Notes: generated by a model not told the origin, from the letters alone. A stretch of DNA of 64,000 nt from Alphaproteobacteria bacterium (GCA_965216755.1 CBDCGL010000011.1:1298609-1362608), one strand, 5' to 3'. Counted from the first letter of the stretch, positions 44,748 to 61,109 are shown. Made by a program: numbers and translations.

Positions 44748-45590
44748 CTACATGAAACCCACAAAATGGTTCGCGTTCCAATCCATCGCGACGTCTTCCG
44801 ATTCCGTACGTTTCTTGGGCGCCTCTGTCTTACGCGGTGCTTCGGCACGTTTGTGATGGGGATGACCATGATGGTCCTTCGGCACACGTGCCTGACGCAC
44901 ATCTTCCATGCTCACGGGCTCCACGTCGTACGGTTCGTTCTGGCCGATCACTTCGCTGTAAGACGCGGCGACGCCCGGATAGCCAACCAGTTTCCACCCG
45001 ATCATATCGCGATTGCCGCCATAGGCGGGATCGGCAAAAAACCCATCCTTTGTGTCGGTGATCAAGTGAGCAAAGAAAGTTGCACCCGGCACCTCTTCCA
45101 GCGACACGTCACCGGATACACCCTGCAATCCGCTCAGAACGTCTTCCTGCTGAGCCGCTTCGAGCTGGCTAAAGAACTTGCCATAGCTTTCCTGGCAGTA
45201 CTGATCCGTGGCAGCGATGCCAACTTGGTAGAGCTGCCGAGGTGACAGGGGTAGCTGATAGCCTTGGTACCCGGTTGTGTCGCCGAACGGGCCTTGCTGA
45301 TAAAATCGCGCACCGGCGCCATAGTCACCAGCCAACTGCTGATCGATAAAGTACGAGACGTCCGCCTCCAAAGCGCCGGGCCCGAGATCATCGGCCGGGA
45401 TTAGGCGAGCGACCGCCGCTTCAATGAAGGCGGCTTCTGCGTCGGTAAAAAATGTATACGTCTTGTCCATCGTACCTAGATCGGCACGATGAACGCGCGC
45501 CTCTGTGTGTGGCGCCGAGGCGACAACGTCCGACGCGGCCACGGATGCGACCGTGCCCGCGAGTATCTGTAGGAACCTTCGCCGGTCCAT
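44748..45590 (-). CDS. gluconate 2-dehydrogenase subunit 3-family protein, Tat signal
   Basis: MDRRRFLQILAGTVASVAASDVVASA twin-arginine signal. Upstream partner of the GMC flavoprotein, as in membrane-associated flavoprotein dehydrogenases. Confidence 0.7.
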   Translation of the reverse strand: MDRRRFLQILAGTVASVAASDVVASAPHTEARVHRADLGTMDKTYTFFTDAEAAFIEAAVARLIPADDLGPGALEADVSYFIDQQLAGDYGAGARFYQQGPFGDTTGYQGYQLPLSPRQLYQVGIAATDQYCQESYGKFFSQLEAAQQEDVLSGLQGVSGDVSLEEVPGATFFAHLITDTKDGFFADPAYGGNRDMIGWKLVGYPGVAASYSEVIGQNEPYDVEPVSMEDVRQARVPKDHHGHPHHKRAEAPRKTEAPKKRTESEDVAMDWNANHFVGFM

Positions 45591-46084: not shown

Positions 46085-47101
46085 TTACGTGTAAAGCCGC
46101 TCGCCTCTTATACCCTCATATAGATGGGCGACCTGATCCGCGTATCCGTTGAAGAGCAATGTTGGTATTTTCTCTTTCGACCCCAACCGCTTCTCAGTCC
46201 GTTGACTCCAACGCGGGTGGCGGACTTTAGGATTGACGTTCGCCCAAAAGCCATACTCGTTCGGTTGGACGTCCTCCCAAAACGTCTGCGGCCTGTCTTC
46301 CACCAGCGTGAATCGCGTGATGGACTTGATGTGCTTAAAGCCATATTTCCAAGGCACCGCGAGACGCAACGGCGCCCCATTCTGTTCCGGCAAAGGCTTG
46401 CCATAGGCGCCGACAACGACGAAGGCGAGTTCATTGGTCGCCTCGTCAATAGTCAAAGCCTCCGTATACGGCCACGGATACCACGCCTGGCGTTGGCCAG
46501 GCGCGATATCGCTGTCGAAGAAGCTTTCCATGCGAAGAAACTTGGCGTCGCTCAAAGGGCGCGCCATGGCGATCAGCTCGCTAAGCGGAAATCCGCTCCA
46601 GGGCACCACCATCGACCAGGCTTCGACACAACGATGCCGATATACCCGCTCCTCGAGCGGCATTCTGTGAACCAAATCATCGAATGAAATCGAGATCGGT
46701 TTTTCGACCAATCCGTCGATGGTGACATCCCAGGGGCTGGTCTGAAGGTTGACGGCCGTTTTCCATATGTTCTTGTGCGAGCCGAACTCGAGAAAATTGT
46801 TGTACCGAGTCACCAACTTTTTCTCCGTGATCGAGTCGTCAGCCACGTACGCGGCATTGCGCATGACCGGGAGAAGCTCGGCAACCGAGCGTGCCCCCGC
46901 GGTCGATATTTCCGGTGCATCCGGCGCTGCCGATTGTTCGCCTTCGTCGCCCGTATCACACGCGGCGATAAGTCCCGTTACCGACACCATCGTGGAGGCT
47001 ATCGCCAACCCGCGCAGAAACTTACGGCGTTCCCGGAATGTATGCTCGGGAGTCACGGCGCTCTCGTCGATCGCCCATCCGGGCCGCACACGCACCAGCA
47101 T
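46085..47101 (-). CDS. msrP: protein-methionine-sulfoxide reductase catalytic subunit MsrP (YedY; sulfite-oxidase-fold Mo enzyme)
   Basis: 338 aa. Tat signal RRKFLRGLAIASTMVSV. The Mo-domain region around the VYRHRCVEAWSMVVPW motif is characteristic of MsrP/YedY. Confidence 0.85.
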   Translation of the reverse strand: MLVRVRPGWAIDESAVTPEHTFRERRKFLRGLAIASTMVSVTGLIAACDTGDEGEQSAAPDAPEISTAGARSVAELLPVMRNAAYVADDSITEKKLVTRYNNFLEFGSHKNIWKTAVNLQTSPWDVTIDGLVEKPISISFDDLVHRMPLEERVYRHRCVEAWSMVVPWSGFPLSELIAMARPLSDAKFLRMESFFDSDIAPGQRQAWYPWPYTEALTIDEATNELAFVVVGAYGKPLPEQNGAPLRLAVPWKYGFKHIKSITRFTLVEDRPQTFWEDVQPNEYGFWANVNPKVRHPRWSQRTEKRLGSKEKIPTLLFNGYADQVAHLYEGIRGERLYT

Positions 47102-47235: not shown

Positions 47236-47658
47236 CTATTGTGAGGCAAGTGGATAAAGTATCAACGCGCCATTTGGCGCGATCCAATACCACCCGTGAG
47301 CGCCCGCATGGATCTCAGTTGGTTCACCCGCCTCGGCCATACCAAAGAAACCCGGCACGTTCGGGACCATCGGCATAGCCGGCATACCCACCATGCCGAC
47401 CATCCCCGCTTGCGGCATGGTCGGCCCCGACGGATACAGGGCCAACTGACCCGTGGTCAGGATTCGATACCATCCCGTTGACCCCAGGACACCCCCAGCA
47501 GTGTAGCCGCGCGTCGCAGGATCCAAGCTCGATTGGCTTGCCGCAACCGTCCCCCCTGCGACCATCAAGAAAAGACACGCCAAAACTAGGCCACCGTAAG
47601 CCTTTAGCTTGTAGCTACCGCACCTGTCCGGTGCCACCCTCGTGCCCAGCGTGTTCAC
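47236..47658 (-). CDS. small secreted protein with duplicated G[WF][YF]..P.G.L.LYP motif
   Basis: 140 aa. Signal-like LVLACLFLMVAGGTVAA. Two copies of the motif (GWYRILTTGQLALYP, GWYWIAPNGALILYP) flank a short Met/Pro-rich segment (GMVGMVGMPAMPMVP). Confidence 0.6.
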   Translation of the reverse strand: MNTLGTRVAPDRCGSYKLKAYGGLVLACLFLMVAGGTVAASQSSLDPATRGYTAGGVLGSTGWYRILTTGQLALYPSGPTMPQAGMVGMVGMPAMPMVPNVPGFFGMAEAGEPTEIHAGAHGWYWIAPNGALILYPLASQ

Positions 47659-49016
47659 GTCGAACCCGACGACTCCTCATGCAAACCATATTTTCGGATC
47701 AGACGGTACGTGTTTCGCTCACTTATTCCAAGTGTGGCCGCAACTTTTACCCTATGACCCGAGTATTTTTCCAAGAGATGCTTCAGATAATCTTGCTCTA
47801 TTTCTTTCAAGCTCGGTTCGTGATCAAATGACAAGACCAACTCCTCGGCCTTCGGCGACTGCTCGGTCGACAGAACGACATGCTCTTCATGAATGGTCGG
47901 ATGTGCACCGGACAGAATTATCGCGCGCTCCACTACATTCTTCAGCTCTCGCACGTTACCCGGCCAATCATATGCCATCATTCTTTTCATGGCGCGCCGC
48001 GATACGCGCTTGTCAATCCGTCTTGAAAAATCGTGATTGCTAATGAAATGATTAACCAAGTCTTCAATGTCCTCTCGACGTTCACGCAATGGCGGTACCG
48101 TTATGACAAAGGCACTGAGTCGATAAAACAAATCTGAACGAAACCGGCCGTCCCGACTGAACTTCTCTAGATTGGCATTTGTCGCGGCAACAATTCGAAC
48201 ATGCGCTGTCAGGTCCTTTGTGCCGCCGACGCGCCGGAATTGACCGGATTCAAGAACGCGCAGCAACTTTGCCTGGATGGACGAAGTGATTTCGCCGATC
48301 TCATCGAGAAAGAGCGTGCCGCCTTCGGCCCCCTCGATTAACCCTTTCTTCTGTCGATCAGCACCGGTAAAGGACCCACGCTCATGGCCGAAAAGTTCCG
48401 ATTCGAACAACGTTTCCTGTAAGGTACAGCAGTCCAACGCGACAAAATTGCGATTTAGTCGCGCGCTGCGTTCGTGGATTTCGTGGGCGACAAGCTCCTT
48501 GCCGACACCGCTTTCGCCTTGGATCAAAACGGTCATATCCGACGGCGCCACAGCATCGATCAGACGATTGACCTGCTCCACCGCCGTGCTGTTGCCGACC
48601 AAAAAAGTTCGCCGACTGGTGCGCAACCGATCTTCAACAAACTGCAAATTGCGGCGCAGCGCGGCATTCTCCAAGACTCGGTCGACAACGACTTCCAATT
48701 CTTCCAAGTTGACGGGCTTGGAGAGATAGTCGGCAACGCCCAACTGCATGGCCTTCACGGCTTTCTGCACAGACGCATATGCCGTTAATATGATGACCGG
48801 TTGCTGCGCGACGAGATCCGAAAGGAATTCGTACCCGTCAGCATCAGGTAGTCGTGGATCAAGAACGATCAGGTGTGGCTCGTACGCTGTCAGATAGTTT
48901 TCCGCAGCCGCCCAACAATCGACGCCCTCGGTTGCATAGCCGACTTGGTTGAGTTGCTTGACAAGCAAACTATTCAGAACTTGATCGTCCTCAATGATCA
49001 ATATGTTCGGCTTCAA
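47655..49016 (-). CDS. sigma-54-dependent response regulator (NtrC/Fis family)
   Basis: GGGAG RBS then TTG start at LKPNILIIEDD. Receiver domain, AAA+ sigma-54 activator domain (GESGVGKE, GAFTGA-like ESELFGHERGSFTGA), C-terminal HTH. Confidence 0.85.
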   Translation of the reverse strand: MKPNILIIEDDQVLNSLLVKQLNQVGYATEGVDCWAAAENYLTAYEPHLIVLDPRLPDADGYEFLSDLVAQQPVIILTAYASVQKAVKAMQLGVADYLSKPVNLEELEVVVDRVLENAALRRNLQFVEDRLRTSRRTFLVGNSTAVEQVNRLIDAVAPSDMTVLIQGESGVGKELVAHEIHERSARLNRNFVALDCCTLQETLFESELFGHERGSFTGADRQKKGLIEGAEGGTLFLDEIGEITSSIQAKLLRVLESGQFRRVGGTKDLTAHVRIVAATNANLEKFSRDGRFRSDLFYRLSAFVITVPPLRERREDIEDLVNHFISNHDFSRRIDKRVSRRAMKRMMAYDWPGNVRELKNVVERAIILSGAHPTIHEEHVVLSTEQSPKAEELVLSFDHEPSLKEIEQDYLKHLLEKYSGHRVKVAATLGISERNTYRLIRKYGLHEESSGST

Positions 49017-50979
49017 CGCAGGCTCCCTGATCGACAACTGCCTGATATCCGGCGCGCGGCAACCGAATCTCAAATAGGGTTCCGACGCCGACACCACTCC
49101 TTACCTCGATCGTGCCCCCGTAGCGCTCGATGATAGCTTTGGCAATCGAAAGGCCCAATCCGGTCCCTTTTTCACCATCTGCCCGGCGGCTGAAAAATGG
49201 ATCATAAATGTGAGGAAGGTCTCCAGGCTGGATCCCACAGCCCGTATCCTCGAATATGATTTCTACGTTGTCTTGCGTCTCCGAAGTCGCGATTCTGAGT
49301 TCGTCGCCCGGCGACATGGCGTGAAACGCGTTTTGCACAAAATTCAGGACAATCATTCGAATCTCGCTGTCGCTGCACAGTACGCGCGGTTGCCGCGGAT
49401 CCAGATCAAGCTCTATGCGATGTTCATGCGACTTGGATTCAAACGACAATAGAGACACGGTGTCGCTGATCGCACGGTTGACATCGACCAGTTCCGGGGA
49501 CCTGCTTGGTGGTGCGCTCAACTTCATCAAGCGCTCTGTCACTTCGATGCATTTATCGATCTCAGTATCGACAGTACTCAGATACTGACCTATGTCATCA
49601 AGGGACTTATCTTCCCGCCCCGTTGCTCGGAGCGCCGCTTGCAGCGCCAACCTGATAGAGCTCAGCGGATTGTGGATTTCGTGCGCGACACCCGTGGCGA
49701 GTTGGTCCAATTCCTTCAACTTCTGCTCTTGGGAAATTTGCATCTCGTTTGATAGGTCGCGAATGGACTCAACGACCAGCGTCTTCGGCCGTCCCTCTTC
49801 TTCCAACATAAGTGGTGCGGCGTAAACCTGCACCCGCGACAGGGACCCGTCGTTTAGAACATGCTGGTGGATCGTCTTTACGGGTTTCCCTGTGCGCGCG
49901 ATTTCAGTCAACGGACAAATGACCAATCCAGCCGGACAGGGGCTTTCGCGGCGATGACTTGACTCATAGCAGGGTATGCCGACCACGTCGGTCATATGAA
50001 CGCCAAGATGGCGACAATAGGCCGAATTCGCCGTGACGATCGCGTGGTCCGAATCGATCACACGCAATGGATCTGGATTTGCTTCCAACAATGCTTGCAG
50101 AAATTGCCCTCGCCTTTGCGATTCCCGGATACTTGTCGCCAGATTGTGTGCCATTTCGTTGAAACGGTTTTCAAGCTCGGCCATTTCGTCACGCCCACGT
50201 ACGGCGACTCGGCTATCAAGCTGTCCCGAAGACAGTTTGCGCGTCGCCGTCGCCAACTGGCGAACTGGGCGAACCACGTTGTTGCGGACAAACCACCATC
50301 CAGCACCAACCGTCAACAACACCACGAGCGCGCCCGAACCGGTTAACATAAAGGCCAGCATACGGGCATCCCGACGCACCGGCGCGGCGTCATAGTCGAC
50401 AAAGATGACACCATTGACCGGATGCGCTTCGACCGAACCATGACACCCGATACAAGCAGGGCGGTTCCGGATCGGGTTCACGCTGCGCAACACCTCCCGT
50501 CCCTGCGCATCAACAGTAAAAACACTGCGCGGCCGGGACGCCGTCTCCGATGCGTGACACCCGGCGCAGGCAGGATCGGTGCCGCGGTCAAACCGTATTC
50601 CGACACGATCTCCTGACGATGCAAACCTCACTTCACCCGCCGGGTTCACAATCATGACGCCGCTAATCCCCTGCTGCTGACCGAGGCGTACGACAATATC
50701 CCGCAATCCACTCAGGTCTCTTTTCAGCATCGCATTCTCTAGCGATGCTTGGAGCAAGCGATTGATCTGTGTTGAGGCCTCCGTGCGTTCGCGCTCCAGT
50801 TGCGCGCGATACATGCCGACAAACAGCACTAAGAAAATAAGCGACGCGGCAACCAGACCAATCGTCATAATGACGGTAAATCTACGATCTAGTCGCGATA
50901 TCAACGGCGTGACCCTCAGCCAGAAACCCCTTTTGACAATGTCACAAATCGGACATTTCAATTGGGCCCAAAAAAGCAC
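48991..50979 (-). CDS. sensor histidine kinase with periplasmic di-haem (2x CXXCH) sensor domain
   Basis: TM helix, then periplasmic domain with CAGCH and CIGCH. HAMP, PAS-like, HisKA (HEIHNPLSSI) and HATPase_c domains follow. GTG start at 50979 or ATG at 50868. Confidence 0.8.
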   Translation of the reverse strand: MLFWAQLKCPICDIVKRGFWLRVTPLISRLDRRFTVIMTIGLVAASLIFLVLFVGMYRAQLERERTEASTQINRLLQASLENAMLKRDLSGLRDIVVRLGQQQGISGVMIVNPAGEVRFASSGDRVGIRFDRGTDPACAGCHASETASRPRSVFTVDAQGREVLRSVNPIRNRPACIGCHGSVEAHPVNGVIFVDYDAAPVRRDARMLAFMLTGSGALVVLLTVGAGWWFVRNNVVRPVRQLATATRKLSSGQLDSRVAVRGRDEMAELENRFNEMAHNLATSIRESQRRGQFLQALLEANPDPLRVIDSDHAIVTANSAYCRHLGVHMTDVVGIPCYESSHRRESPCPAGLVICPLTEIARTGKPVKTIHQHVLNDGSLSRVQVYAAPLMLEEEGRPKTLVVESIRDLSNEMQISQEQKLKELDQLATGVAHEIHNPLSSIRLALQAALRATGREDKSLDDIGQYLSTVDTEIDKCIEVTERLMKLSAPPSRSPELVDVNRAISDTVSLLSFESKSHEHRIELDLDPRQPRVLCSDSEIRMIVLNFVQNAFHAMSPGDELRIATSETQDNVEIIFEDTGCGIQPGDLPHIYDPFFSRRADGEKGTGLGLSIAKAIIERYGGTIEVRSGVGVGTLFEIRLPRAGYQAVVDQGACVEAEHIDH

Positions 50980-51039
50980 ATAGTTATAAGGGTTTTTGGG
51001 ACGTAACGCCAGCGCGGCGCCCTCCCAACGCGAGTCGTC

Positions 51040-52113
51040 TTATGCCAAGACTTGAAAGAGATTGAGCTTTCGTCCGGTTTCACGACATACCCAACACGTC
51101 GCGGACTCAAGAGCCTGGTCGCCCGGCATGTGAAACGGCGTACCACAGCGCGCACAGACCTGGCGCCGCAACGGCAATTGAAGCTGCGTGGGCGCGATGT
51201 CGGTCCCGATCGATATGGCGTGCTGTCTGCAAACATCCACACACAGCATACACCCACTGCATCGGTTCGCCTTCAGCCCATAGTGCGTATTGTCACCGTC
51301 ACGCCGCAGAGTGATCGCGCCATGTGCGCACAAGCGCACGCAGGCGTCACAGCCCGAGCACCGTTCGCTGTCGATCTCCGGGACAAAGGGAAGTAGAGCC
51401 GTATCGCCATCCGCGAACAGAGGTGGCCTGTGCTTTGGCCGTGGCGCCTCGTCCGCGACCGTCTGTCGCTCGACGCGATCGATAAGTGTACTAACCATAC
51501 CCTTCAGGAGCGAACGACGGCCGAGCCCGTTGTCGCGCCGGCGCACTTCGGCGCCGTCACGCGCCGCCCGCCACTTGCCGACGGGCAGCAAGCGAATGGC
51601 CAAAGCCGGCTGGTCCCGCGCCGACAAATACTGGTTCACGGTATCAACGACAGACTCAAGGCGCATACACGCCCCCCGCCGGCATGTGTCACATGGTGCC
51701 TCGGCGACCCACAACGTATAGATTCCGCGGTCGTGAAGTTGGAACAAAGCACGCATCGAAATTGCATGGACACATGGCACGACGCCTGCGCCGTCGTCGC
51801 TTGTCGCAGTATCGCAGGCGACGAACGCGACGCCTTGCCCGCGCACATCACGCATTGTTGTGGCAAATTTGGCCTCGATCGCGGATTCTGGGCATACTGC
51901 CGCGCACAGGCCGCAGCCGTCGCAACGGCCGACGTCGATCATCAAGCCATCATCGCACAACGACAAAGCGCCTTCGGGGCAGGCCTTGACACAGGCGGTG
52001 CATGTCGCATCGACCGTACGCCCGTGGACGCATAAGTTGCCATCAATCTCGGGACATTGATCGTGCGCCGCATCCCTCGGCGAATCCGCCATTTCCAATC
52101 GACCAATCACCAA
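51040..52113 (-). CDS. multi-cluster 4Fe-4S ferredoxin-type protein
   Basis: 357 aa. Several CxxCxxCxxxCP motifs (CTACVKACPE, CDGCGLCAAVCPE, CSGCDACVRLC, CSGCMLCVDVC). Confidence 0.7.
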   Translation of the reverse strand: MVIGRLEMADSPRDAAHDQCPEIDGNLCVHGRTVDATCTACVKACPEGALSLCDDGLMIDVGRCDGCGLCAAVCPESAIEAKFATTMRDVRGQGVAFVACDTATSDDGAGVVPCVHAISMRALFQLHDRGIYTLWVAEAPCDTCRRGACMRLESVVDTVNQYLSARDQPALAIRLLPVGKWRAARDGAEVRRRDNGLGRRSLLKGMVSTLIDRVERQTVADEAPRPKHRPPLFADGDTALLPFVPEIDSERCSGCDACVRLCAHGAITLRRDGDNTHYGLKANRCSGCMLCVDVCRQHAISIGTDIAPTQLQLPLRRQVCARCGTPFHMPGDQALESATCWVCRETGRKLNLFQVLA

Positions 52114-52880
52114 CTCGGCGCGGTGCCAGGTAGATAAGTTGGGCCCAATTCGCCGCAGTCTTTTGAAAATCTCTTGTTGGCGCGTAGCTGCTCGTAGTTG
52201 GGCTTGGGCTGATCAAGTGCAAGTGCGAACAATTCACGTGCGCGATGAAGATAGGCTGCAGTCGTTCCCGCCAAACCCGCGTAGAAAGGCATTTCGCACC
52301 GCGCCATGACGCGCTCCGCGAAAGCGTCGATCCAGAGCAGGAGGTGCTGATCCAAAAACGCTGCCGCGTCTCTCACCGCCTGCAAATCGCGTCCATCCGT
52401 CAGCAACCGGCCAACAAACTGCAGTTGCAAAACCAGGTGATCATCCGCGCGACTTGCCCAGTCTTGAACACAAACACCGTGGCGCCGGTACCAAGCCCGC
52501 ACTTCAAACATCGGTTGCTGACGTTCCAATCCATCTTCGTCCAGCCACACCGATTCGTAAGGGGACGCGCGGTAGCCATGCGTCAAATAGATTTCGCCAT
52601 ATTCGACCGCGAGCCGATCCAGTACGTCATCACCAGGTGTATCTGGCAACGCCGCCACCGCCTGATCGAATATATCGAGTGCGGCGCGTCCCGCCGCCGT
52701 CTCCAGTCGAAGACCCAGGCTTTGGGCAAGCCCTTCTTCACGCAGCGCTGCTAGGGTCTTCGCCTCTGGCTCCTTGTCATGAAGCATGGCCAAGAGCTTG
52801 AGATCCGCGGCCACACTCGTCCGCAGTTGGTCGAGCAAATCACGACCCCCGGGCATCTCGGACGCCACGGCCGATGCCAT
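52107..52880 (-). CDS. TorD/DmsD-family redox-enzyme maturation chaperone
   Basis: Family-like motif pattern (PDDHL.LQLQF..L, ESVWLDEDGL). ATG at 52880 sits 1 nt after the DmsB-like stop. Confidence 0.6.
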   Translation of the reverse strand: MASAVASEMPGGRDLLDQLRTSVAADLKLLAMLHDKEPEAKTLAALREEGLAQSLGLRLETAAGRAALDIFDQAVAALPDTPGDDVLDRLAVEYGEIYLTHGYRASPYESVWLDEDGLERQQPMFEVRAWYRRHGVCVQDWASRADDHLVLQLQFVGRLLTDGRDLQAVRDAAAFLDQHLLLWIDAFAERVMARCEMPFYAGLAGTTAAYLHRARELFALALDQPKPNYEQLRANKRFSKDCGELGPTYLPGTAPSW

Positions 52881-52881
52881 T

Positions 52882-53553
52882 TCAGCCGGCATCGACGCGG
52901 CCTTTGCTGTGCGCCACAAAAGCAATCGACGGTCTGGTTAACGCTGGATCCGCCAAATTCTTGACTTGCTGCGTCACTTTGTCCGCCGGACCCAACGCCT
53001 TAGTCTCATAGCCACCCGCTACGATCTGGTCAATCGGCCCAACATCCAGCACGCGCATCATGCAAGCCATGACGCAATAGGGTTTTCGACCCGCATCAAT
53101 TTCGTCGACGCACATATTGCATTTCTTGACCAGGTTATCTTCCGGATCAAATTGCGGTGCACCATAGGGGCATGCGGCCTCGCATCGCCGACACCCAATG
53201 CACAGCGTCGAGTCGATATCAACGATGCCATCTTTCTTGCGCTTGAATATGGCCCCGGTCGGACATGTCGGCAAACATGCCGGTTCTGCGCAATGGTTGC
53301 ATGACATATTAACCTTGTACGCATAAACGTCCGGGAACTGGCCGCCTTCGATGTATTGCACTCGGCGAAATCGAGGCCCTGGGCCAAGACCATTCTTGTC
53401 TTTACAAGCAATTTCGCACGCGCGGCACCCGATACAATCAACGTTGTGATGCACGAATCCGAGTTGCGTATCGGGCACGACCGGCTTGTAAACTTCGCGC
53501 TTGCGCCTCTTGACTGCTTCTTTGACCCGTGCCTTATCGATCTGGTTCGTCAT
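52882..53553 (-). CDS. DMSO-reductase-family iron-sulfur subunit (DmsB-like, 4x [4Fe-4S])
   Basis: 223 aa with four ferredoxin Cys clusters (CIGCRACEIAC, CNHCAEPACLPTCP, CIGCRRCEAACP, CNMCVDEID...CVMAC). Confidence 0.85.
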   Translation of the reverse strand: MTNQIDKARVKEAVKRRKREVYKPVVPDTQLGFVHHNVDCIGCRACEIACKDKNGLGPGPRFRRVQYIEGGQFPDVYAYKVNMSCNHCAEPACLPTCPTGAIFKRKKDGIVDIDSTLCIGCRRCEAACPYGAPQFDPEDNLVKKCNMCVDEIDAGRKPYCVMACMMRVLDVGPIDQIVAGGYETKALGPADKVTQQVKNLADPALTRPSIAFVAHSKGRVDAG

Positions 53554-53576
53554 GGAACAACTCCCCCTAAAACGTT

Positions 53577-56117
53577 TTAGTTGTCACGCCGGAAAACGTG
53601 GCCACGTGCCGTGGCAAGCTTGTCCCATCCGGGCCTGTGGGTGAGCTCTGTCTTGGACATGTTGACCAGAATCGTATTGTACGCGAACGCGCCCGCCGGA
53701 CTCGGTTCGTCGGCTGTCAAGAAGTCCGGATTGCCCGAGCGGTCGACCCCTGTTTCATCGAGATCCATCCAGGCCCCTTCGTGCAGAACGACGACGCCGG
53801 GCATGCACCTTTCGGTCACATAGGCCGGCACAACCGTGGCACCACGATCGTTCCAAACATAGACGGCGTCACCAGTCTTGATACCCAACCCCTCGGCGTC
53901 TTTCGTGTTGATCGTCACCTCTTGCTCGTAGGTCTCGCGCAACCAAGGAATGTTGTTGAAGATCGAATGGGTGCGCCACCGGGGATGCGGCGTGATCATG
54001 TGGAACGGATACTTCTCCGCTTTCGGGTGATTGAGCGACTCCCACGGCTCAATCCATTTCGGGATGTAAGGGATCGGCGCGCCAAACTGCGTCTTCTTCC
54101 AATCCGTGACCGACGCCAACTGTGTCGAGAAAATCTCAACCTTTCCTGACGGAGTCGAGAACGGTTGACCTTTCTCGACTTGATCCCGGAACGCAACGTG
54201 TGGTTCGTCGAGCTCAAATTTGTAGACCCCACGTTTCTTGAACTCATCCCACGATATCTCGACGTGGTGGTGATGCCGTACTTTGGTCTCCCACCACTCA
54301 CTGAGATACGCTTCGTCGACAGCGTCGTCATTGTAGAAATAGTCGCGCGTGGCCTTCGGATTGAAGACGTTTCCAAATCCCAATCGGAAGCCGAGCTCGG
54401 TGAAGATCTGCAAGTCGCTTTTGCTTTCCCCCAACGGCTCAATGACTTTCGGCCGATGAATGTAGTAATGCCCCTTGTACCAAGGTAGGGCCACGTCGTG
54501 CCGTTCGAAATGCGTGGCTACCGGTAGTAACACGTCGGCCCAAATCCCGGACGGGGTTATCGTGGAGTCTTGGCAAACCACGAGATCAAGCTTCTTTATG
54601 GCTTCGATCTCTTTGTTGATATTCGTCAACTGATTGAACCAATCGGATGCCTGCCACCAAATTGCACGGATATTCGGAATCACGCCGTCCATTGGCCCAG
54701 GTTTTGGCCACAATCCAACATCCTCGCGCCGCACATACGGGTAGTTCAACACACAATGCGCCCACCGATCGGACTTAATCGCAGCCGCGTGCACGTTAGC
54801 ATATTGATCGTATGGGCCGGCGACGCTTTCCATATGCCAGCCCTTGCCGACACCTTCACTCGAACCGCCCAAAACACCGATGTTCCCGGTTTGCGCTTGC
54901 AGCGCCGCGGCCATACGGCTGTATTGTTCCCCATAGGCGGCGCGCCCGGGCGCCCAAGACGCCTTGAGCGCGGCTGGCTTGGTTGTGCCATACATTTCGG
55001 CCAATTTCTTGATGTCCGCGGCGGACACACCGCAAATGGGTTCGGCCCACTCCGGTGTTTTTGGTTGACCATCATAACGGCCATAAATGTAGTCGCGGAA
55101 GTTCTCCATATTGGCCGCCCAGGGCGGCATGGTGCCCTGATCCATTCCCAAGCAGAATCTATCGATGAAATCTTGATCCTGCCAATTATTCTCAAAAATG
55201 TGGAAGGCCATGGCGGCAAGCATCGCCGCGTCTGTGTTCGGCTTGATCGGAATCCACCATGCGTCGTAGGCGGCTGCCGAGTCCGTGTACTGAGGATCGA
55301 CGACGACAAATTTGCAGCCGCGTTGCTTCGCCAGCCGCATATAGTAGAACGTATTGCCGCCATGAAATGTGTAAGCCGGATTCCAGCCCCACATAATGAT
55401 CAATTTGGAATGAGCGAACGCGTCATCCTCGTTGCCGTCTTCGATTGTTCCGAACGTCTGTAGTGAACTAAATGTTGTACCTTGATAGGATGGCACGGAC
55501 CATGACACGGTGCGGCAGCCAAATATGCCGAGGAACCGACCCAGAGACCCTTCGATCTGATCCGACTTGTGCAGGGCACCCCAAGACGCACCCGCATAGG
55601 ACTGATCGAGAATGGCCGTCGGGCCGTATGTATTCTTCAGGTGCAACATGCGCTCGGCGAGATAGTCAAGGGTATAGTCCCAAGACGCGCGTTTGAACTT
55701 GCCCTCACCACGTGCGCCGACCCGGATCATTGGGTAAAGCAACCGTTCCGGCGAATAAATACGCGATCGATACGATCGGCCACGCAAGCAAGCCCGCACT
55801 TGCGGCACCGCTTCCGTGTCAGTGTTAAACGCATCGCCTTGATAGGTTCCGTCGTCCGTCGACAAGCGAACGATCACATTGCCCTTTTTGTGCGCAACCA
55901 GCATATGGCGCGAACCACAGTTGTGTGCGCAGCTGGTGACAACCGTGGTGAGCTCATCATCCGTGTAATAGGGCTCATAAGCGAACGCGTCAGCCTGTTG
56001 GCTCTGTGCGGTGCTCACCAAGCCGGCCGTCGCGCCGGCGGCGGCCGATTGCAGAAAGCCCCGCCGCGAAACATTGAACGCTGATCTCAATTCATCCAGG
56101 CGATTTTGTTTAGTCAT
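53577..56117 (-). CDS. molybdopterin oxidoreductase catalytic subunit (DMSO reductase family, DmsA-like), Tat signal
   Basis: 846 aa. Tat signal SRRGFLQSAAAGATAGLVSTAQS. N-terminal Cys cluster for [4Fe-4S] (CAHNCGSRH...), bis-MGD domains, C-terminal molybdopterin dinucleotide-binding domain. Confidence 0.85.
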   Translation of the reverse strand: MTKQNRLDELRSAFNVSRRGFLQSAAAGATAGLVSTAQSQQADAFAYEPYYTDDELTTVVTSCAHNCGSRHMLVAHKKGNVIVRLSTDDGTYQGDAFNTDTEAVPQVRACLRGRSYRSRIYSPERLLYPMIRVGARGEGKFKRASWDYTLDYLAERMLHLKNTYGPTAILDQSYAGASWGALHKSDQIEGSLGRFLGIFGCRTVSWSVPSYQGTTFSSLQTFGTIEDGNEDDAFAHSKLIIMWGWNPAYTFHGGNTFYYMRLAKQRGCKFVVVDPQYTDSAAAYDAWWIPIKPNTDAAMLAAMAFHIFENNWQDQDFIDRFCLGMDQGTMPPWAANMENFRDYIYGRYDGQPKTPEWAEPICGVSAADIKKLAEMYGTTKPAALKASWAPGRAAYGEQYSRMAAALQAQTGNIGVLGGSSEGVGKGWHMESVAGPYDQYANVHAAAIKSDRWAHCVLNYPYVRREDVGLWPKPGPMDGVIPNIRAIWWQASDWFNQLTNINKEIEAIKKLDLVVCQDSTITPSGIWADVLLPVATHFERHDVALPWYKGHYYIHRPKVIEPLGESKSDLQIFTELGFRLGFGNVFNPKATRDYFYNDDAVDEAYLSEWWETKVRHHHHVEISWDEFKKRGVYKFELDEPHVAFRDQVEKGQPFSTPSGKVEIFSTQLASVTDWKKTQFGAPIPYIPKWIEPWESLNHPKAEKYPFHMITPHPRWRTHSIFNNIPWLRETYEQEVTINTKDAEGLGIKTGDAVYVWNDRGATVVPAYVTERCMPGVVVLHEGAWMDLDETGVDRSGNPDFLTADEPSPAGAFAYNTILVNMSKTELTHRPGWDKLATARGHVFRRDN

Positions 56118-56187
56118 TACTGAGTTCCTGTCTGGTGTCGCCTACTGCACAACTTGTCGTTGCTATTTCCTGCCATGACGTTTGACG

Positions 56188-56988
56188 TCACTGCGCGTTG
56201 ATGCGAAAGCGTGACGCCGACTCGGTCGGGCGATCGACCGCCCATTCCGGCGTTTCTTCCGGCATGTCCGGCCAAGGATGTCGCGGGTATGGATACGATG
56301 TCGCGTACCACGCACGGCCACCATGACAGCCGTAGCAAACATCTGAGCTCTCTCTTGCCAGTTCTTCTATGGCATCTGCCTTGAGGTAGTTGACGTTGTG
56401 CCGAACCGTACGGAACAGTTCCTCATGACACAGCTGGCATCCATTGGGTGTCGCCTCATCCTCCAGATCAACACGAACTTCTGGCCAAGGCCCCTCGACG
56501 CCGAGCATCAGTTCGTTTGGAAAACGCCCATGACACAACAAGCACGTTTCTTGAGGGACCACCGACTTACGTAAACTAAATCCAGCGTCAGCGGCGGTCG
56601 GTGGTATGGGTGCTTCTTCACGGGGATCGTGACCCAGGTGGCAGGTGTTGCATTGCAAATCCATAACCTGCGTCGCGTATGGGGTTATCAAATGCCTCCG
56701 ATGAAAAGTTTCTTGATCTCCCTGATATGTATCCAATGTCTGATACCACGCCGTTGATTCCACAGCTTCAACGCCTGCCGGCGACTCGCTTAGAACGCGG
56801 CGGTCGATAATTTCCTGGTGACAGGACAAACATTGATCGTTCGTTGCTGACTCGATTGCCGGCCGGAAATGAATTGGATCCCAGATGGCGCTCTCATAGT
56901 CGATCTCCGCGGCACTAGCACCGGACGCCGCCCACAACCCGACATACATGGCAGTCAACGGCCGCACGATGGCCATCACCTTATTCAT
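56188..56988 (-). CDS. pentaheme c-type cytochrome
   Basis: 266 aa. Signal peptide and five CXXCH motifs (CLSCH, CNTCH, CLLCH, CQLCH, CYGCH). Confidence 0.75.
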   Translation of the reverse strand: MNKVMAIVRPLTAMYVGLWAASGASAAEIDYESAIWDPIHFRPAIESATNDQCLSCHQEIIDRRVLSESPAGVEAVESTAWYQTLDTYQGDQETFHRRHLITPYATQVMDLQCNTCHLGHDPREEAPIPPTAADAGFSLRKSVVPQETCLLCHGRFPNELMLGVEGPWPEVRVDLEDEATPNGCQLCHEELFRTVRHNVNYLKADAIEELARESSDVCYGCHGGRAWYATSYPYPRHPWPDMPEETPEWAVDRPTESASRFRINAQ

Positions 56989-57359
56989 TGTTGCCCCACC
57001 ACTTGTTGCGTCGCCCCACTCATGGAGGCCGTTTCTTCATTGGATATCTCGCTGTGGCTCTGGTGCCATCCACGAATGTCGTACGGTCCGGTCATGCCTG
57101 GACGTGTAAAAGGCGTGAACCAGGCCCCCTGATCTTCGAGAAAACGGAGACTATAGGGATAAGGACTGTCGACGCCTGTGAGGGCGTGGTCATACCAAGC
57201 CCCATTCTTTTCCAACTCATGGACCACCGGCGCGTCTGCCGGCCGCTGATCTGGCTTGGTTCCAGCGACTGAAAGAGTTGTTTGGCTGGCTTGCGCGCCT
57301 ACATGTCCGAGACTGGCCAGAACGACACCCGCCAGCGGCACAAGTTTCCACAGTGTCAT
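56985..57359 (-). CDS. hypothetical secreted protein
   Basis: Start placed at MTLWKLVPLAGVVLASLGHVGAQA (signal peptide). Stop overlaps the cytochrome start (ATGA). Contains two GAW[YF] segments. Confidence 0.45.
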   Translation of the reverse strand: MTLWKLVPLAGVVLASLGHVGAQASQTTLSVAGTKPDQRPADAPVVHELEKNGAWYDHALTGVDSPYPYSLRFLEDQGAWFTPFTRPGMTGPYDIRGWHQSHSEISNEETASMSGATQQVVGQQ

Positions 57360-57474
57360 GCTATTTCTCACTCTTCTTTTTCTTGCCCGCACGCGTCGTC
57401 CCTCCCGGCTGGTAAACGCTGTCAAAGAAAATCCTGAACTCTTGGTCATCCTGCCAGTCGCTGGCCTCATCCGG

Positions 57475-57933
57475 CTAGTTTGTCACGTCGGAGTTATCCT
57501 GATCCACATTGCTCGGTCCCGCCATCGGTTGTGTGGCAGTCGGTGCCTGGCCATGCATCCACGGCATGGAGCGCGGTCCTTGTTGGCCAAATAACAAGCC
57601 CGCCGGTGCGTAAAGCAGCAGCCCACCATCTGGCGCGACCCGAAAGAACCCGCGGGAATTGACCAGATTTGTGCTGCCGAACATGCCCAGGATCGTGTAC
57701 ATCACCTCAGGCGGCACGACTTGGCTCACAGGATAAAGGACGATCCCCCCATTTGGCATAAACTGAAAGAAGCCATGGGCGTCCACCAACGAACCAACGG
57801 CGATCGGCTGATCTGGATTAGCCGGCACAAGCGACTGACCATCTTGCGCGAGAACTTGCATCGGTTTGGCCGCCATGAATGCTGTCATGAGCAAGACGAC
57901 GCCAAAACTTGTCACACGCCTAATTACAATCAT
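57475..57933 (-). CDS. small secreted protein with duplicated G[WF][YF]..P.G.L.LYP motif (paralogue of 47236..47658)
   Basis: 152 aa. Signal peptide VVLLMTAFMAAKPMQVLA. Motif copies GFFQFMPNGGIVLYP and GFFRVAPDGGLLLYAP. Met/Pro-rich tail (MPWMHGQAPTATQPMAGP). Confidence 0.6.
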   Translation of the reverse strand: MIVIRRVTSFGVVLLMTAFMAAKPMQVLAQDGQSLVPANPDQPIAVGSLVDAHGFFQFMPNGGIVLYPVSQVVPPEVMYTILGMFGSTNLVNSRGFFRVAPDGGLLLYAPAGLLFGQQGPRSMPWMHGQAPTATQPMAGPSNVDQDNSDVTN

Positions 57934-58082
57934 TGTCTAACTCACAATGTTCCGATCGTGCCATCATGCGTGAAGGTCGCAATCGGGAAGAAAGAGGCTT
58001 CGCGGTGAGTGTCCGGAAAACAACTGACTCGACTTCTGTCGGCGTTCACCGGACACATACACCATGCTAGCGCTTTAGCGTT

Positions 58083-59480
58083 TTAGCGCGGCGGTTCCCA
58101 GTTGCGGGCTGCCATACCTGGCATACCTTGCATGCCCCACATGCCGGGCATACCCTGCATGCCCCACATTCCGGGCATACCCTGCATGCCCCACATTCCG
58201 GGCATACCCTGCATGCCCCACATTCCGGGCATGCCCTGCATACCCCACATTCCGGGGTAGCTGGCGTACATCCCCCACATGCCGGGGTTCATCCCCCACA
58301 TACCAGGCATACCTTGCATGCCCCACATACCGGGCATGCCGTACATGCCGCCCATGCCCCACATGCCAGGGTTCATGCCCCACATACCGGGCATACCTTG
58401 CATGCCCCACATACCGGGCATGCCGTACATACCGCGCATGCCCCACATGCCAGGCATTCCGTACATGCCGCCCATACCGGGCATGCCGTACATGCCGCCC
58501 ATGCCCCACATGCCAGGCATTCCGTACATGCCGCCCATACCGGGCATGCCGTACATGCCGCCCATGCCCCACATGCCGGGGTTCATCCCCCACATGCCGC
58601 GCATGCCATACATGCCGGGCATTCCGTACATGCCACCCATGCCGCGCATGCCCCACATGCCGGGCATTCCGTACATGCCGCCCATGCCGGGATAGTTCGC
58701 GTACATGCCATACATACCGCCCATACCGGGCATTCCGTACATACCGCCCATGCCCCACATGCCGGGGTTCATCCCCCACATGCCGCGCATGCCATACATG
58801 CCGGGCATTCCGTACATGCCACCCATGCCGCGCATGCCCCACATGCCGGGCATTCCGTACATGCCGCCCATGCCGGGATAGTTCGCGTACATGCCATACA
58901 TACCGCCCATACCGGGCATTCCGTACATACCGCCCATGCCGGGCATGCCGTACATGCCGCCCATACCGGGCATGCCGTACATGCCGCCCATACCGGGCAT
59001 TCCGTACATGCCGCCCATGCCCCACATGCCGGGGTTCATCCCCCACATGCCGCGCATGCCATACATGCCGGGCGTTCCGTACATGCCGCCCATGCCGGGA
59101 TAGTTCGCGTACATGCCGCCCATGCCCCACATGCCGGGGTTCATCCCCCACATGCCGCCCATGCCGGGATAGTTCGCGTACATGCCGCCCATGCCCCACA
59201 TGCCGGGATTCATCCCCCACATGCCGCGCATGCCATACATGCCGCCCATGCCCCACATGCCGGGGTTCATCCCCCACATGCCGCGCATGCCATACATGCC
59301 GGGCATTCCGTACATGCCACCCATGCCGGGATAGTTCGCGTACATGCCGGGCATGCCTTGCATGCTCCACATGCCGGGATACATCCCCTGCATACCTTGG
59401 CCGGCGGATGGCTGTGACATCATTAGCATCGCGCCAATGACCATCGCCGTACCGGCCACTCTCCTTAGCTGCTTCAACAT
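58083..59480 (-). CDS. secreted methionine-rich G-M-X tripeptide-repeat protein 1
   Basis: GAGGAAGG RBS 8 nt upstream of ATG 59480. Signal peptide [27 protein letters not shown]. About 440 aa of ([22 protein letters not shown]...) repeats with interspersed YANYPG. Same strand as the whole cluster. Confidence 0.7.
58110..59410. repeat. coding tandem repeat: 9-nt/27-nt units with 186-nt higher-order near-perfect copies
   Basis: For example, the stretch beginning cccatgccccacatgccgggg at 58561 recurs at 58747. No stop codons in any of six frames, so all frames give long artefactual ORFs. Confidence 0.85.
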
Positions 59481-59805
59481 TTAACGAACCTTCCTCATAA
59501 CAATTGTTCGGTCGGCTTAGACTTCACTCAATCCTCGAATCCCAGTTGCAAGTGCCGCCGTTCAAGGTCCGACACCGACAAATCTCGATCTTGGACCGGC
59601 GTTGCGGACAGAACATCAGCTATGCATCGTTGTTCCGTGAACCCTATCCATTTGTTCGCACTGCAACCTTTCGCCGTTTTATTGACGGCATTGAATAAAA
59701 AGATCTGTGGCTTACGCCCCGTTCTTGAGGGAACGGCCCAGTTGCTCTGTCAGAATTCCCAAGCCATGGTGGGCGCTCTGTTGCGCCCACCATGCTGCAG
59801 TCGAC

Positions 59806-60843
59806 TTAGCCGTCTTTATCGTCGTCGGACTCACCCGACATGCCTTCCATGCCGGACATACCTTCCATGCCGGTCATGCCGGACATACCGCTCATGCCGG
59901 ACATACCTTCCATGCCGGACATACCGCCCATGCCGGACATACCTTCCATGCCGGACATGCCTTCCATGCCGGTCATGCCTTCCATGCCGGTCATTCCGGG
60001 CATCCCCGTCATACCCATTCCAGGCATGCCGTACATTCCGCCCATGCCGGGCTGTAACGCAGCCAAGTTTGCCGGATAGAGCGTGATGACGTTACCAGGG
60101 CCAACGGTGAAGTAGCCGGCGAAGACCGCGCCACCACTCATGCCTTGCATGCCGCCCATACCGGGCATGCCTTGCATGCCGCCCATACCGGGCATGCCTT
60201 GCATTCCCCACATACCGGGCATGCCTTGCATACCCCACATACCGGGCATGCCTTGCATACCCCACATGCCGGGCATGCCTTGCATTCCCCACATGCCGGG
60301 CATGCCTTGCATTCCCCACATACCGGGCATGCCTTGCATTCCCCACATGCCGGGCGTGCCTTGCATTCCCCACATGCCGGGCATGCCTTGCATTCCCCAC
60401 ATGCCGGGATAGTTGGCATACCGTTGGCCTTGCATGCCCCACATGCCGGGGTTCATCCCCCACATGCCGGGCATACCTTGCATACCCCACATACCGGGAT
60501 AGTTCGAATACTGTTGACCTTGCATGCCCCACATGCCGGGGTTCATCCCCCACATGCCGGGCATACCTTGCATACCCCACATGCCGGGCATACCTTGCAT
60601 ACCCCACATACCGGGCATACCTTGCATACCCCACATACCGGGCATGCCTTGCATACCCCACATGCCGGGATAGTTCGAATACTGCTGACCTTGCATGCCC
60701 CACATACCGGGCATACCTTGCATACCCCATTGATTGGGCATAGTTTGCTGGCTATGTGCCGTGCTTGTCGCGCTCAGTGACGCCATCGCAACAACGGCAA
60801 CGAGGCCAACAACCCTCCCAATCTTTTTTAGCGTACTAATCAT
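59806..60843 (-). CDS. secreted methionine-rich G-M-X tripeptide-repeat protein 2 with central LYP motif and acidic GM[EST] C-terminal repeats
   Basis: Signal peptide MISTLKKIGRVVGLVAVVAMASLSATSTAHS. About 200 aa of almost uniform GMWGMQGMP repeats. Then GGAVFAGYFTVGPGNVITLYPANLAALQPG. Then [25 protein letters not shown]... ending GESDDDKDG. Confidence 0.7.
   Translation of the reverse strand: MISTLKKIGRVVGLVAVVAMASLSATSTAHSQQTMPNQWGMQGMPGMWGMQGQQYSNYPGMWGMQGMPGMWGMQGMPGMWGMQGMPGMWGMQGMPGMWGMNPGMWGMQGQQYSNYPGMWGMQGMPGMWGMNPGMWGMQGQRYANYPGMWGMQGMPGMWGMQGTPGMWGMQGMPGMWGMQGMPGMWGMQGMPGMWGMQGMPGMWGMQGMPGMWGMQGMPGMGGMQGMPGMGGMQGMSGGAVFAGYFTVGPGNVITLYPANLAALQPGMGGMYGMPGMGMTGMPGMTGMEGMTGMEGMSGMEGMSGMGGMSGMEGMSGMSGMSGMTGMEGMSGMEGMSGESDDDKDG
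59830..60740. repeat. coding tandem repeat (27-nt unit catgccgggcatgccttgcattccccac and variants)
   Basis: Many consecutive perfect 27-mers at about 60140..60420. Open in all six frames. Confidence 0.85.
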
Positions 60844-61109
60844 TCGTACCTCTATGTCGCCGTCTCCCGTGGAGACAGCGGTCCTTTAATGTGCTGACCG
60901 AGAAAAGACGCCGCAGCACCCGGGATGAACATTTCCTAGGTACTGTGGCTCGAATTCCCACCTAACTGCTTGCCTTCCCGTTGACGCCGCTGATTGCGGC
61001 GCCGGCTTTTTAATAAGCAGATTTCGTGCCAGCCTTAGCGTGCAAGCGTAAGTATTTGAAATTTTGTATGAATTCGACTTCGGCCACGTTCAAGGGCCTG
61101 TCTCTAACC

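Follow-up and report, generated by a model that had tools for sequence, protein, structure and literature searches.

Periplasmic methionine-rich (Met-rich) proteins have so far been described as unstructured and unconserved oxidant sinks, as in the hypochlorite-scavenging system of Azospira suillum, which consists of MrpX and the reductase YedY1, also known as MsrP (Melnyk et al. 2015, PMC4436054). MrpX is small, contains 20% Met and 44% charged residues, and is unconserved and natively unfolded with no folded module (PMC4436054). Reduction of methionine sulfoxide (MetO) is also known from enzymes of the dimethyl sulfoxide (DMSO) reductase family. DorA of R. sphaeroides reduces protein-bound MetO (PMC7402097), and the DmsABC enzymes of E. 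coli and Haemophilus are MetO-reducing members of the same family (PMC12096835, PMC8340005). In TDP-43, the self-association of a Met-rich low-complexity domain is switched by Met oxidation (PMC10576115). Here we describe a gene cluster in a stretch of 64,000 nucleotides (nt) from an alphaproteobacterial genome (Alphaproteobacteria bacterium, GCA_965216755.1, CBDCGL010000011.1:1298609-1362608), below called the window, in which two small secreted proteins, A and B, and a Met-rich protein, Met2, share a short motif. The motif is a previously undescribed, conserved element, predicted to be a hairpin, which occurs almost only in secreted Met-rich proteins and their small relatives. A literature search returned MrpX and general work on methionine sulfoxide reductases (Msr) and DmsABC only, and nothing on the motif, on such short conserved islands in Met-rich chains, or on the operon. 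We propose, at a probability of about 45%, that the hairpin would be a pairing module which organises disordered MetO-sink proteins in cis or in trans.

The first-pass annotation of the window had reported the motif twice in A, twice in B and once in Met2. When the 64 kb window was translated in six frames, all five peptides were recovered, each of them on the minus strand (Table 1). The Met2 copy does exist, but it lies about 45 nt away from the position first given for it (60030-60075), so that the end coordinate then set for the whole finding cuts through this copy. The pattern G[WFY][FYW]x9LY gave exactly five matches in the six frames, identical with the reported copies, versus 0.045 matches expected by chance from the six-frame residue frequencies. 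In cross-searches among the 1279 open reading frames (ORFs) of the window, a profile made from the two copies of A found B with an expectation value (E) of 1.5e-7, and the reverse search gave 4.6e-6. The two small proteins are homologous over their whole length (BLASTP E = 1e-7) and are paralogues with a common layout of signal peptide, hairpin, linker and hairpin. With a profile refined by database matches, the copies in A and B score 23-34 bits each; the Met2 island scores 27 bits when the profile includes its own type and 5.9 bits when that type is excluded. Judged by these searches and scores, the tie between A and B is robust, and the statistical tie to Met2 is the weakest part. The short Met/Pro-rich segments ascribed to the small proteins were also recovered, in A (PTMPQAGMVGMVGMPAMPMVP) and in the tail of B.

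To place the motif in a wider context, 80 loci (L001-L080) were taken around orthologues of the DmsA-like enzyme of the cluster. The operon is kept in nearly all of them, with a conserved order of protein C, Met-rich protein(s), cytochrome c, DmsA, DmsB, TorD, ferredoxin, kinase and sigma-54-type regulator. Starting from the five window copies, an iterated profile picked up the hairpin in 18 of the ORFs in these loci: 16 Met-rich ORFs, one more Met-rich ORF, at the far end of L014 on the minus strand, and, in L001, which is the window's closest relative, one A-like small protein with two hairpins. Two copies of GYF[KQ]ITPQGQIFFYPASG are set within the GMSGM repeats of twelve complete Met-rich ORFs, which come from Thiodiazotropha, Sedimenticola and other gammaproteobacteria, and the Met-rich protein of a Hyphomicrobium (L006) carries one hairpin copy. 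At a domain E <= 0.01 the refined profile detected no unrelated ORF among approximately 28,000 six-frame ORFs. The consensus spans approximately 18-22 residues and reads [VI]LGxxG-[WYF]-[YF]-x-[IV]-x-P-x-G-x-[ILV]-x-[LF]-Y-P.

A profile built solely from the window's five copies was also run exhaustively with HMMER against 1.84 billion representative proteins and gave 27 non-self matches at E <= 0.001. Ten of these are small secreted proteins of 138-218 amino acids (aa) with two or three hairpins, and nine of the ten contain GMx stretches. Where the contig was informative, seven out of eight small proteins are encoded in the same operon: P0010, P0008, P0015 and P0009 are sited between C and the cytochrome, the three-hairpin protein P0026 (L088 and L089) comes directly after the kinase and the regulator, like A, P0029 lies immediately upstream of C, and P0012 is itself the Met-rich protein of a complete operon. 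P0005 was found outside the operon, and the contigs of P0014 and P0028 were too short to tell. A metagenome scan with four A-type proteins added a P0012-like protein in a short locus with a C gene upstream (L094). The remaining matches were tandem-repeat proteins with weak repeats of 4-13 bits each, which have in common with the motif only the generic turn F-x-V-x-P-D-G; among them, a Listeria-Bacteroides repeat protein (P0007) matched the profile only via summed weak repeats. These searches show that the hairpin is specific to the system of Met-rich proteins and DmsA/B-like enzyme. The earlier suggestion of a dedicated, conserved element of one system was therefore borne out, since the HMMER search returned small hairpin proteins that mostly belong to the same operon. 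The full motif is strongly enriched in the system, and the outcome of a widespread low-specificity beta-strand pattern was not found. The suggested link to msrP fared differently. The conserved partner is instead the DmsA/B-like operon with C, while MsrP was encountered within 10 kb in just 4 of the 80 loci.

The coding sequences of the gammaproteobacterial hairpins show how strongly the peptide is kept. Twenty-five DNA versions encode only 7 peptide versions, the codon differences are 2041 synonymous versus 299 non-synonymous, and all four proline codons are used, i.e., the hairpin peptide is under strong purifying selection. This bears on the simplest alternative, that the resemblance is due to chance or to a low-specificity beta-strand pattern with no common origin. 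Indeed, F-x-V-x-P-[DN]-G-x-[IV] is a common hairpin-turn signature, the core turn is weakly scored in cadherin-like, VCBS, PD40 and Listeria-Bacteroides repeats as well as in beta-trefoil hairpins, and the Met2 copy fails the profile from which its own type was left out. Chance does not, however, account for five copies where 0.045 are expected, for the lack of any off-system match at full-motif scores in the approximately 28,000 ORFs, for the concentration of database matches in one operon, or for the evident purifying selection. We consider it effectively refuted for A, B and the gammaproteobacterial proteins, and exceedingly improbable as a whole.

The motif is predicted to form a beta-hairpin. 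Modelling of the small proteins had been proposed as a check, and AlphaFold2, run on B with an alignment of 12 sequences, predicted two beta-hairpins with strands at residues 53-58/64-69 and 94-99/105-108, a helix at residues 75-84, and disorder elsewhere. In 10-residue blocks the mean predicted local distance difference test score (pLDDT) was 84 for residues 51-70 and 81 for residues 91-110. When only A and B were aligned, the same hairpins were predicted at low confidence (pLDDT 45.8). Among solved structures the hairpin has no relative in the PDB. It is the only foldable element of a periplasmic (Gly-Met-X)n family which is apparently exported by the general secretory (Sec) route.

There is a rule in the number of islands per chain. 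Most Met-rich proteins that lack the hairpin have a one-cysteine island instead, G-W-[VT]-C-T-Q-[WY]-[TS]-[YF], e.g., GWVCTQWTY. Complete ORFs have two such islands in 19 of 27 cases, one in seven and three in one; in 16 proteins the two island cysteines are the sole cysteines of the chain, which suggests a single disulfide. Complete Met-rich ORFs with the hairpin have two hairpins in 12 of 14 cases and one in the other two, i.e., the hairpin usually occurs twice per polypeptide. Hairpin and Cys island were never found together in one Met-rich protein. Single-hairpin Met-rich proteins are encoded in five loci, namely the window, L001, L081, L088 (L088_4486) and L006. A small multi-hairpin protein is encoded in four of these five loci, all but L006, versus none of the 12 two-hairpin loci.

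From the two-per-chain rule, the mutual exclusivity of the islands and the co-occurrence of single hairpins with small partners we infer a pairing function, and this evidence favours pairing of hairpins with each other over an anchoring role. The hairpins would associate with one another via their hydrophobic faces. Chains with two hairpins would pair in cis, which in B may give a small beta-beta-alpha-beta-beta unit and in the large gammaproteobacterial proteins would close a Met-rich loop, while single-hairpin Met-rich proteins such as Met2 would pair in trans with A or B. Such pairing would tether or cross-link otherwise disordered Met-rich chains, which may serve as a periplasmic Met/MetO oxidant sink. 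The DmsA/B-like enzyme would recycle these chains with quinol-derived electrons passed through the cytochrome, and in the present genome MsrP might contribute too. In most other loci the GWVCTQWTY islands, two per chain, would do the same job covalently by a disulfide. The redox role follows the precedents of MrpX/YedY1 (PMC4436054) and of the reduction of protein-bound MetO by a DMSO reductase (PMC7402097).

Several of the Met-rich ORFs in L002-L070 illustrate the Cys island, such as L019 7962-9020, L020 7097-8026 and L007 7962-9002. Rarer islands were seen as well: FWMFVPQG..RWFFVP in L004 and L016, QWAWVWIP in L002 and L012, and Lys-rich islands in betaproteobacterial loci. The small protein of L001 (8697-9089) is a hybrid. 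Its hairpin 1 has a Cys in place of the first aromatic residue (AGCYEITPIGTLVLY); next come RASCVQSWSG, which resembles the Cys island, and hairpin 2 (GYFEVTPTGELVFYP). This arrangement hints that the two island types may be connected evolutionarily or functionally.

A number of observations weigh against the pairing module as proposed. Firstly, approximately 60 of the 80 loci have no hairpin at all, which makes the module optional and dispensable for the core system. Secondly, P0005 lies outside any DmsA-like operon, so the module is not strictly confined to it; this Met-rich two-hairpin protein is encoded at L084 10001-10597 amid acyltransferase, nadD-like, rsfS and murC/murB genes. In L006, no small partner is encoded within 10 kb of the single-hairpin Met-rich protein. 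The counts on co-occurrence are low and not independent in phylogeny, and the 12 two-hairpin loci come mostly from one Sedimenticolaceae/Thiodiazotropha clade. The Met2 copy was missed (E = 15) by the profile without Met2-type islands because its turn is shifted by one residue, while the same leave-out profile reaches two islands of the same single-island type, those of L081 (AGFFTVGPGGAITLYPSA, E = 0.002) and L006 (GTYSVSPTGVITLYPASG, E = 0.1). The model of B is moderate overall, with a mean pLDDT of 61.8 and a predicted template modelling score (pTM) of 0.39. Finally, the substrate assigned to the DmsA/B-like enzyme is itself putative.

Instead of pairing with each other, the hairpins could be docking handles for a non-hairpin partner in the operon. 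Candidates would be C as a dedicated chaperone or adaptor, the DmsA/B-like reductase or MsrP for recruitment of the substrate, and the periplasmic domain of the kinase, in which case A would be a co-sensor that reports oxidation. The gene for C adjoins those of the hairpin proteins nearly always, and L095 has two Met-rich genes, each with a C paralogue of its own in front. A overlaps the stop of the regulator, P0026 directly follows kinase and regulator, and the exposed aromatics of the A-type hairpin 2 (W-Y-W) are conserved across distant taxa. Against docking speaks that the approximately 60 loci without the hairpin contain C, the cytochrome, DmsA/B and the kinase to the same extent. The DmsA-like orthologues stay 74-80% identical across alpha-, beta- and gammaproteobacteria while the island switches between hairpin, Cys island and other types, which argues against docking on a conserved site of the enzyme, and docking gives no obvious reason for the two-per-chain rule. 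We find this explanation doubtful, if worth keeping in mind.

The small proteins themselves raise another alternative, that the hairpins have no specific partner and serve only local structure, protease resistance or solubility, with A and B as decaying remnants of Met-rich paralogues. A and B are poor in Met (6-7%) and yet show traces of GMx, and most loci are without the module. An alignment of twelve small proteins resolved two subfamilies. A-type members (A, P0014, P0005, P0012 and P0028) have a hairpin 2 of the form GWYWIAPxGxL[IV]L, while B-type members (B, P0010, P0015, P0008 and P0009) keep M..ILGMFG in the linker and have a hairpin 2 of the form RG[YF][FY]xIxPxGEL.LY; the lead-in [VI]LGxxG of hairpin 1 is conserved. 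A and B are in this way shown to be Met-poor minimal members of a hairpin family, each with orthologues elsewhere. Decay does not agree with the strong purifying selection on the peptide, with intact A-type and B-type orthologues that have signal peptides in other lineages, with the conserved hairpin surfaces and linker helix, or with the conserved positions in the operon. We therefore hold the remnant explanation to be unlikely.

Other searches with A and B gave little. Word-indexed homologue searches with either protein returned only A and B themselves, and a search with a 42-column double-hairpin alignment matched one 50-aa fragment. Pfam and NCBIfam scans (E <= 0.1) returned nothing for A and B, and C is likewise without a family. 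The choline/cell-wall-binding repeat (PF01473), WG repeats and the Listeria-Bacteroides repeat were absent from the scans of A and B at E <= 0.1, and also when 12 family members were compared with Pfam at E <= 5. A GNAT match for A (E = 0.016) was disregarded, since it sits in the signal-peptide region. Resemblances to choline-binding repeats and to the foldon were unsupported by the profile searches.

The two Met-rich proteins of the window, Met1 and Met2, are made of Gly-Met-X repeats. The island of Met2 sits at the junction of aromatic GMWGMQGMP and acidic GMSGMEGMT repeats, and the same placement was found in L001_4950, L081_5974 and L006_6180. Uninterrupted Gly-x-x runs of up to 23-43 triplets make up 62-78% of the chain in the Met-rich ORFs of the window and of L001-L080, the longest runs with Gly at every third residue being 23 triplets in Met1 and 31 in Met2. 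These strict runs explain why both proteins match Pfam Collagen (PF01391), with 82 bits for Met1 and 99 bits for Met2 versus a cut-off of 27.2. Both are rich in Gly, Pro, Trp, Tyr and Gln, with 8-9% Pro and few charged residues, and the third position of the triplet is mostly W, Y, P, G or Q. The repeats are interrupted by Y[AS]NYPGM and QGQQYSNYPGM, 4-5 times in Met1 and three times in Met2 (e.g., residues 52-59); these interruptions shift the Gly register, and an analogous GYGQQGM unit occurs in L001. Between 58075 and 60780, both strands hold many long ORFs in other frames (His/Ala-rich, Arg/His-rich and Pro/Met/Ile-rich), which are by-products of the repeats; of all the frames, it is that of Gly-Met-X which has the signal peptides and is conserved in other genomes.

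Such repeats suggest that the hairpins could be foldon-like nuclei, for trimerisation or registration of a collagen-like or polyproline-II-type (Gly-Met-X)n helix that would present the methionines on the outside of an ordered fibre. Bacterial collagen-like proteins are known to require a separate domain for trimerisation, and the foldon itself is a beta-hairpin. The long Gly-x-x runs directly flank the hairpins, and the threshold of Pfam Collagen is clearly exceeded. The composition of Met1 and Met2 is nevertheless not that of a stabilised triple helix, rich in Pro/hydroxyproline or in charge pairs: Pro stays at 8-9%, and Met1 has almost no charged residues, none being among its eight commonest residue types. 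Trp, Tyr and Gly in the third position disfavour a triple helix on host-guest scales, and all three are common there. Register breaks are frequent, A and B have hairpins but no G-x-x runs, and a search of solved structures gave no sequence similarity to fibritin. This makes foldon-like nucleation very unlikely in our view. Somewhat broader is the idea that hairpins and one-cysteine islands together are assembly nuclei, which would order or condense the (Gly-Met-X)n chains into a periplasmic material. This could be a "methionine collagen" or a redox-switchable network, whose state would be set by Met oxidation and reset by the respiratory-type DmsA/B enzyme, with A and B as possible cross-linkers or caps. 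We regard such a material as improbable too, if slightly less so than foldon-like nucleation.

The motif copies lie within one minus-strand gene cluster, the features of which are listed in Table 1. Genes of the cluster were named by Pfam and NCBIfam scans, except for the DmsB-like subunit, the kinase and the regulator, whose names rest on features of the sequence and on orthologues. The DmsA-like enzyme scores 607 bits versus the dmsA_ynfE cut-off of 778 bits in NCBIfam, and so belongs to a distinct clade. A homologue of protein C is encoded in 59 of the 80 loci, its commonest place being immediately before a Met-rich gene, and the core of C is AG..P..RP..AP.I ... AWY..AL.GV..PYP.SL.FL.DQG.WYTPF..PGM.G.YDIRGWH; it has no relative in Pfam, NCBIfam or the PDB. 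The CxxCH motifs of the kinase, CAGCH and CIGCH, lie in its N-terminal part, and with this pair the kinase may be a redox sensor that contains haem c. The GTG start codon of A (47655-47658) overlaps the stop codon of the sigma-54-type response regulator, which suggests translational coupling, and msrP starts 134 nt downstream of A. No msrQ-like gene was found beside MsrP in the window. Beyond MsrP, a gluconate-2-dehydrogenase-subunit-3-like ORF (44748-45590) and a GMC-type oxidoreductase (42873-44633) were recognised from their sequences. A putative sigma-54-like element upstream of Met2 is in a position that would fit the sigma-54-type regulator of the operon; a window-wide scan for such promoters was not significant, with five matches versus 6.5 expected.

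Table 1. Positions of the motif copies, their proteins and the surrounding genes, counted from the first nucleotide of the window.
Feature	Position	Strand	Description
MsrP	46085..47101	-	periplasmic protein-methionine-sulfoxide reductase, catalytic subunit; no adjoining msrQ
Small protein A	47236..47658	-	140 aa; signal peptide, hairpin 1, short Met/Pro-rich linker, hairpin 2; A-type
A hairpin 2	47251-47295	-	GWYWIAPNGALILYP; C-terminus of A; signature GWYWIAPxGxL[IV]L kept in distant A-type relatives
A hairpin 1	47431-47475	-	GWYRILTTGQLALYP; preceded by conserved GVLGST lead-in
Response regulator	47655..49097	-	putative sigma-54 activator; orthologues in L081 and L088 carry Response_reg and Sigma54_activat
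Sensor histidine kinase	48991..50979	-	two CxxCH motifs in N-terminal, probably periplasmic part
Poly-ferredoxin	51040..52113	-	357 aa
TorD/NarJ-type chaperone	52107..52925	-	
DmsB-like 4Fe-4S subunit	52882..53553	-	assigned from cysteine pattern and position
DmsA/YnfE-like molybdopterin oxidoreductase	53577..56117	-	846 aa; exported by twin-arginine translocation (Tat)
Multihaem cytochrome c	56188..56988	-	266 aa; five CxxCH motifs
Protein C	56985..57470	-	161 aa; secreted; no known family
Small protein B	57475..57933	-	152 aa; signal peptide, hairpin 1, linker helix, hairpin 2, Met/Pro-containing tail; B-type
B hairpin 2	57604-57651	-	GFFRVAPDGGLLLYAP
B linker helix	57682..57711	-	residues 75-84, PEVMYTILGM; M..ILGMFG stretch kept in B-type relatives
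B hairpin 1	57730-57774	-	GFFQFMPNGGIVLYP
Met-rich protein 1 (Met1)	58083..59480	-	465 aa; 29% Met; (Gly-Met-X)n; no hairpin, no Cys island
Met-rich protein 2 (Met2)	59806..60843	-	345 aa; 24% Met; (Gly-Met-X)n; one hairpin island
Met2 hairpin island	60073-60117	-	GYFTVGPGNVITLYP; turn displaced by one residue
Sigma-54-like -24/-12 element	61017..61031	-	TGGCACGAAATCTGC; approximately 175 nt upstream of Met2 start

Compared with known systems, the resemblance to structural assembly domains is in the layout only. In the T4 fibritin foldon and in the trimerisation domains of Scl1/Scl2, a short hairpin or small domain on Gly-X-Y repeats nucleates assembly. The hairpin described here has no detectable similarity to the foldon in sequence or fold, the repeats are poor in Pro and in charge, and hairpins are also found in proteins without repeats. 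TDP-43, and reportedly yeast Pbp1, have a Met-rich low-complexity domain with oxidation-switched self-association, and share with the Met-rich proteins the design of a disordered chain with a short conserved segment. In TDP-43 and Pbp1 this segment forms labile beta structure and mediates self-association, which is tuned by oxidation and by reduction through Msr enzymes. They are, however, eukaryotic and cytoplasmic and have no sequence relationship to the proteins of the operon, so the likeness is an analogy only.

With the DMSO reductases the operon shares a Tat-exported DmsA/YnfE-like subunit, a DmsB-like subunit and a TorD-like chaperone, and MetO reduction by the DmsA/B-like enzyme is by this analogy plausible. 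Unlike DmsABC, the operon encodes no DmsC membrane anchor and a multihaem cytochrome c instead, and neither a Met-rich protein that serves as dedicated substrate nor a hairpin module is known for DorA and DmsABC.

MrpX comes closest in organisation. There, the gene of a secreted Met-rich protein lies beside that of a periplasmic molybdenum MetO reductase, as msrP adjoins A in the window, and the proposed logic is sacrificial oxidation of Met followed by enzymatic recycling. Export is another common feature. By inspection, A, B, Met1 and Met2 have a basic n-region, a hydrophobic core and an AxA-like site, with putative cleavage at VAA/SQ, VLA/QD, AHS/QQ and SAG/QG, respectively. In composition the proteins do not match the roughly 20% Met, high charge and lack of conservation of MrpX: Met makes up 29% of Met1, 24% of Met2 and 6-7% of A and B, and the (Gly-Met-X)n chains have aromatics, very few charges and conserved islands. 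All four proteins have the conserved hairpin or are linked to one another by way of it. The linked reductase is of the DmsA/B type with a multihaem cytochrome and not YedYZ, and regulation is by a kinase and a sigma-54-type regulator and not by SigF/NrsF; the arrangement yedY(msrP)-yedZ(msrQ) under SigF/NrsF has no counterpart in the window, where MsrP adjoins A but is followed by no msrQ-like ORF. On account of these four differences, in composition, conserved folded islands, linked reductase and regulator, we do not class the proteins as members of the MrpX family. The hypothetical proteins A and B hereby gain a family and a context. In contrast to the unstructured sink known from MrpX, this operon, widespread in alpha-, beta- and gammaproteobacteria, with hosts that include symbionts of lucinid clams (Thiodiazotropha), Sedimenticola, and relatives of Competibacter and Hyphomicrobium, has putative sinks that are strict Gly-Met-X polymers with short conserved islands, usually two per chain, and its hairpin offers a testable handle on how sink proteins are organised, on whether they assemble and on how a DmsA/B-type enzyme handles a polymeric protein substrate.

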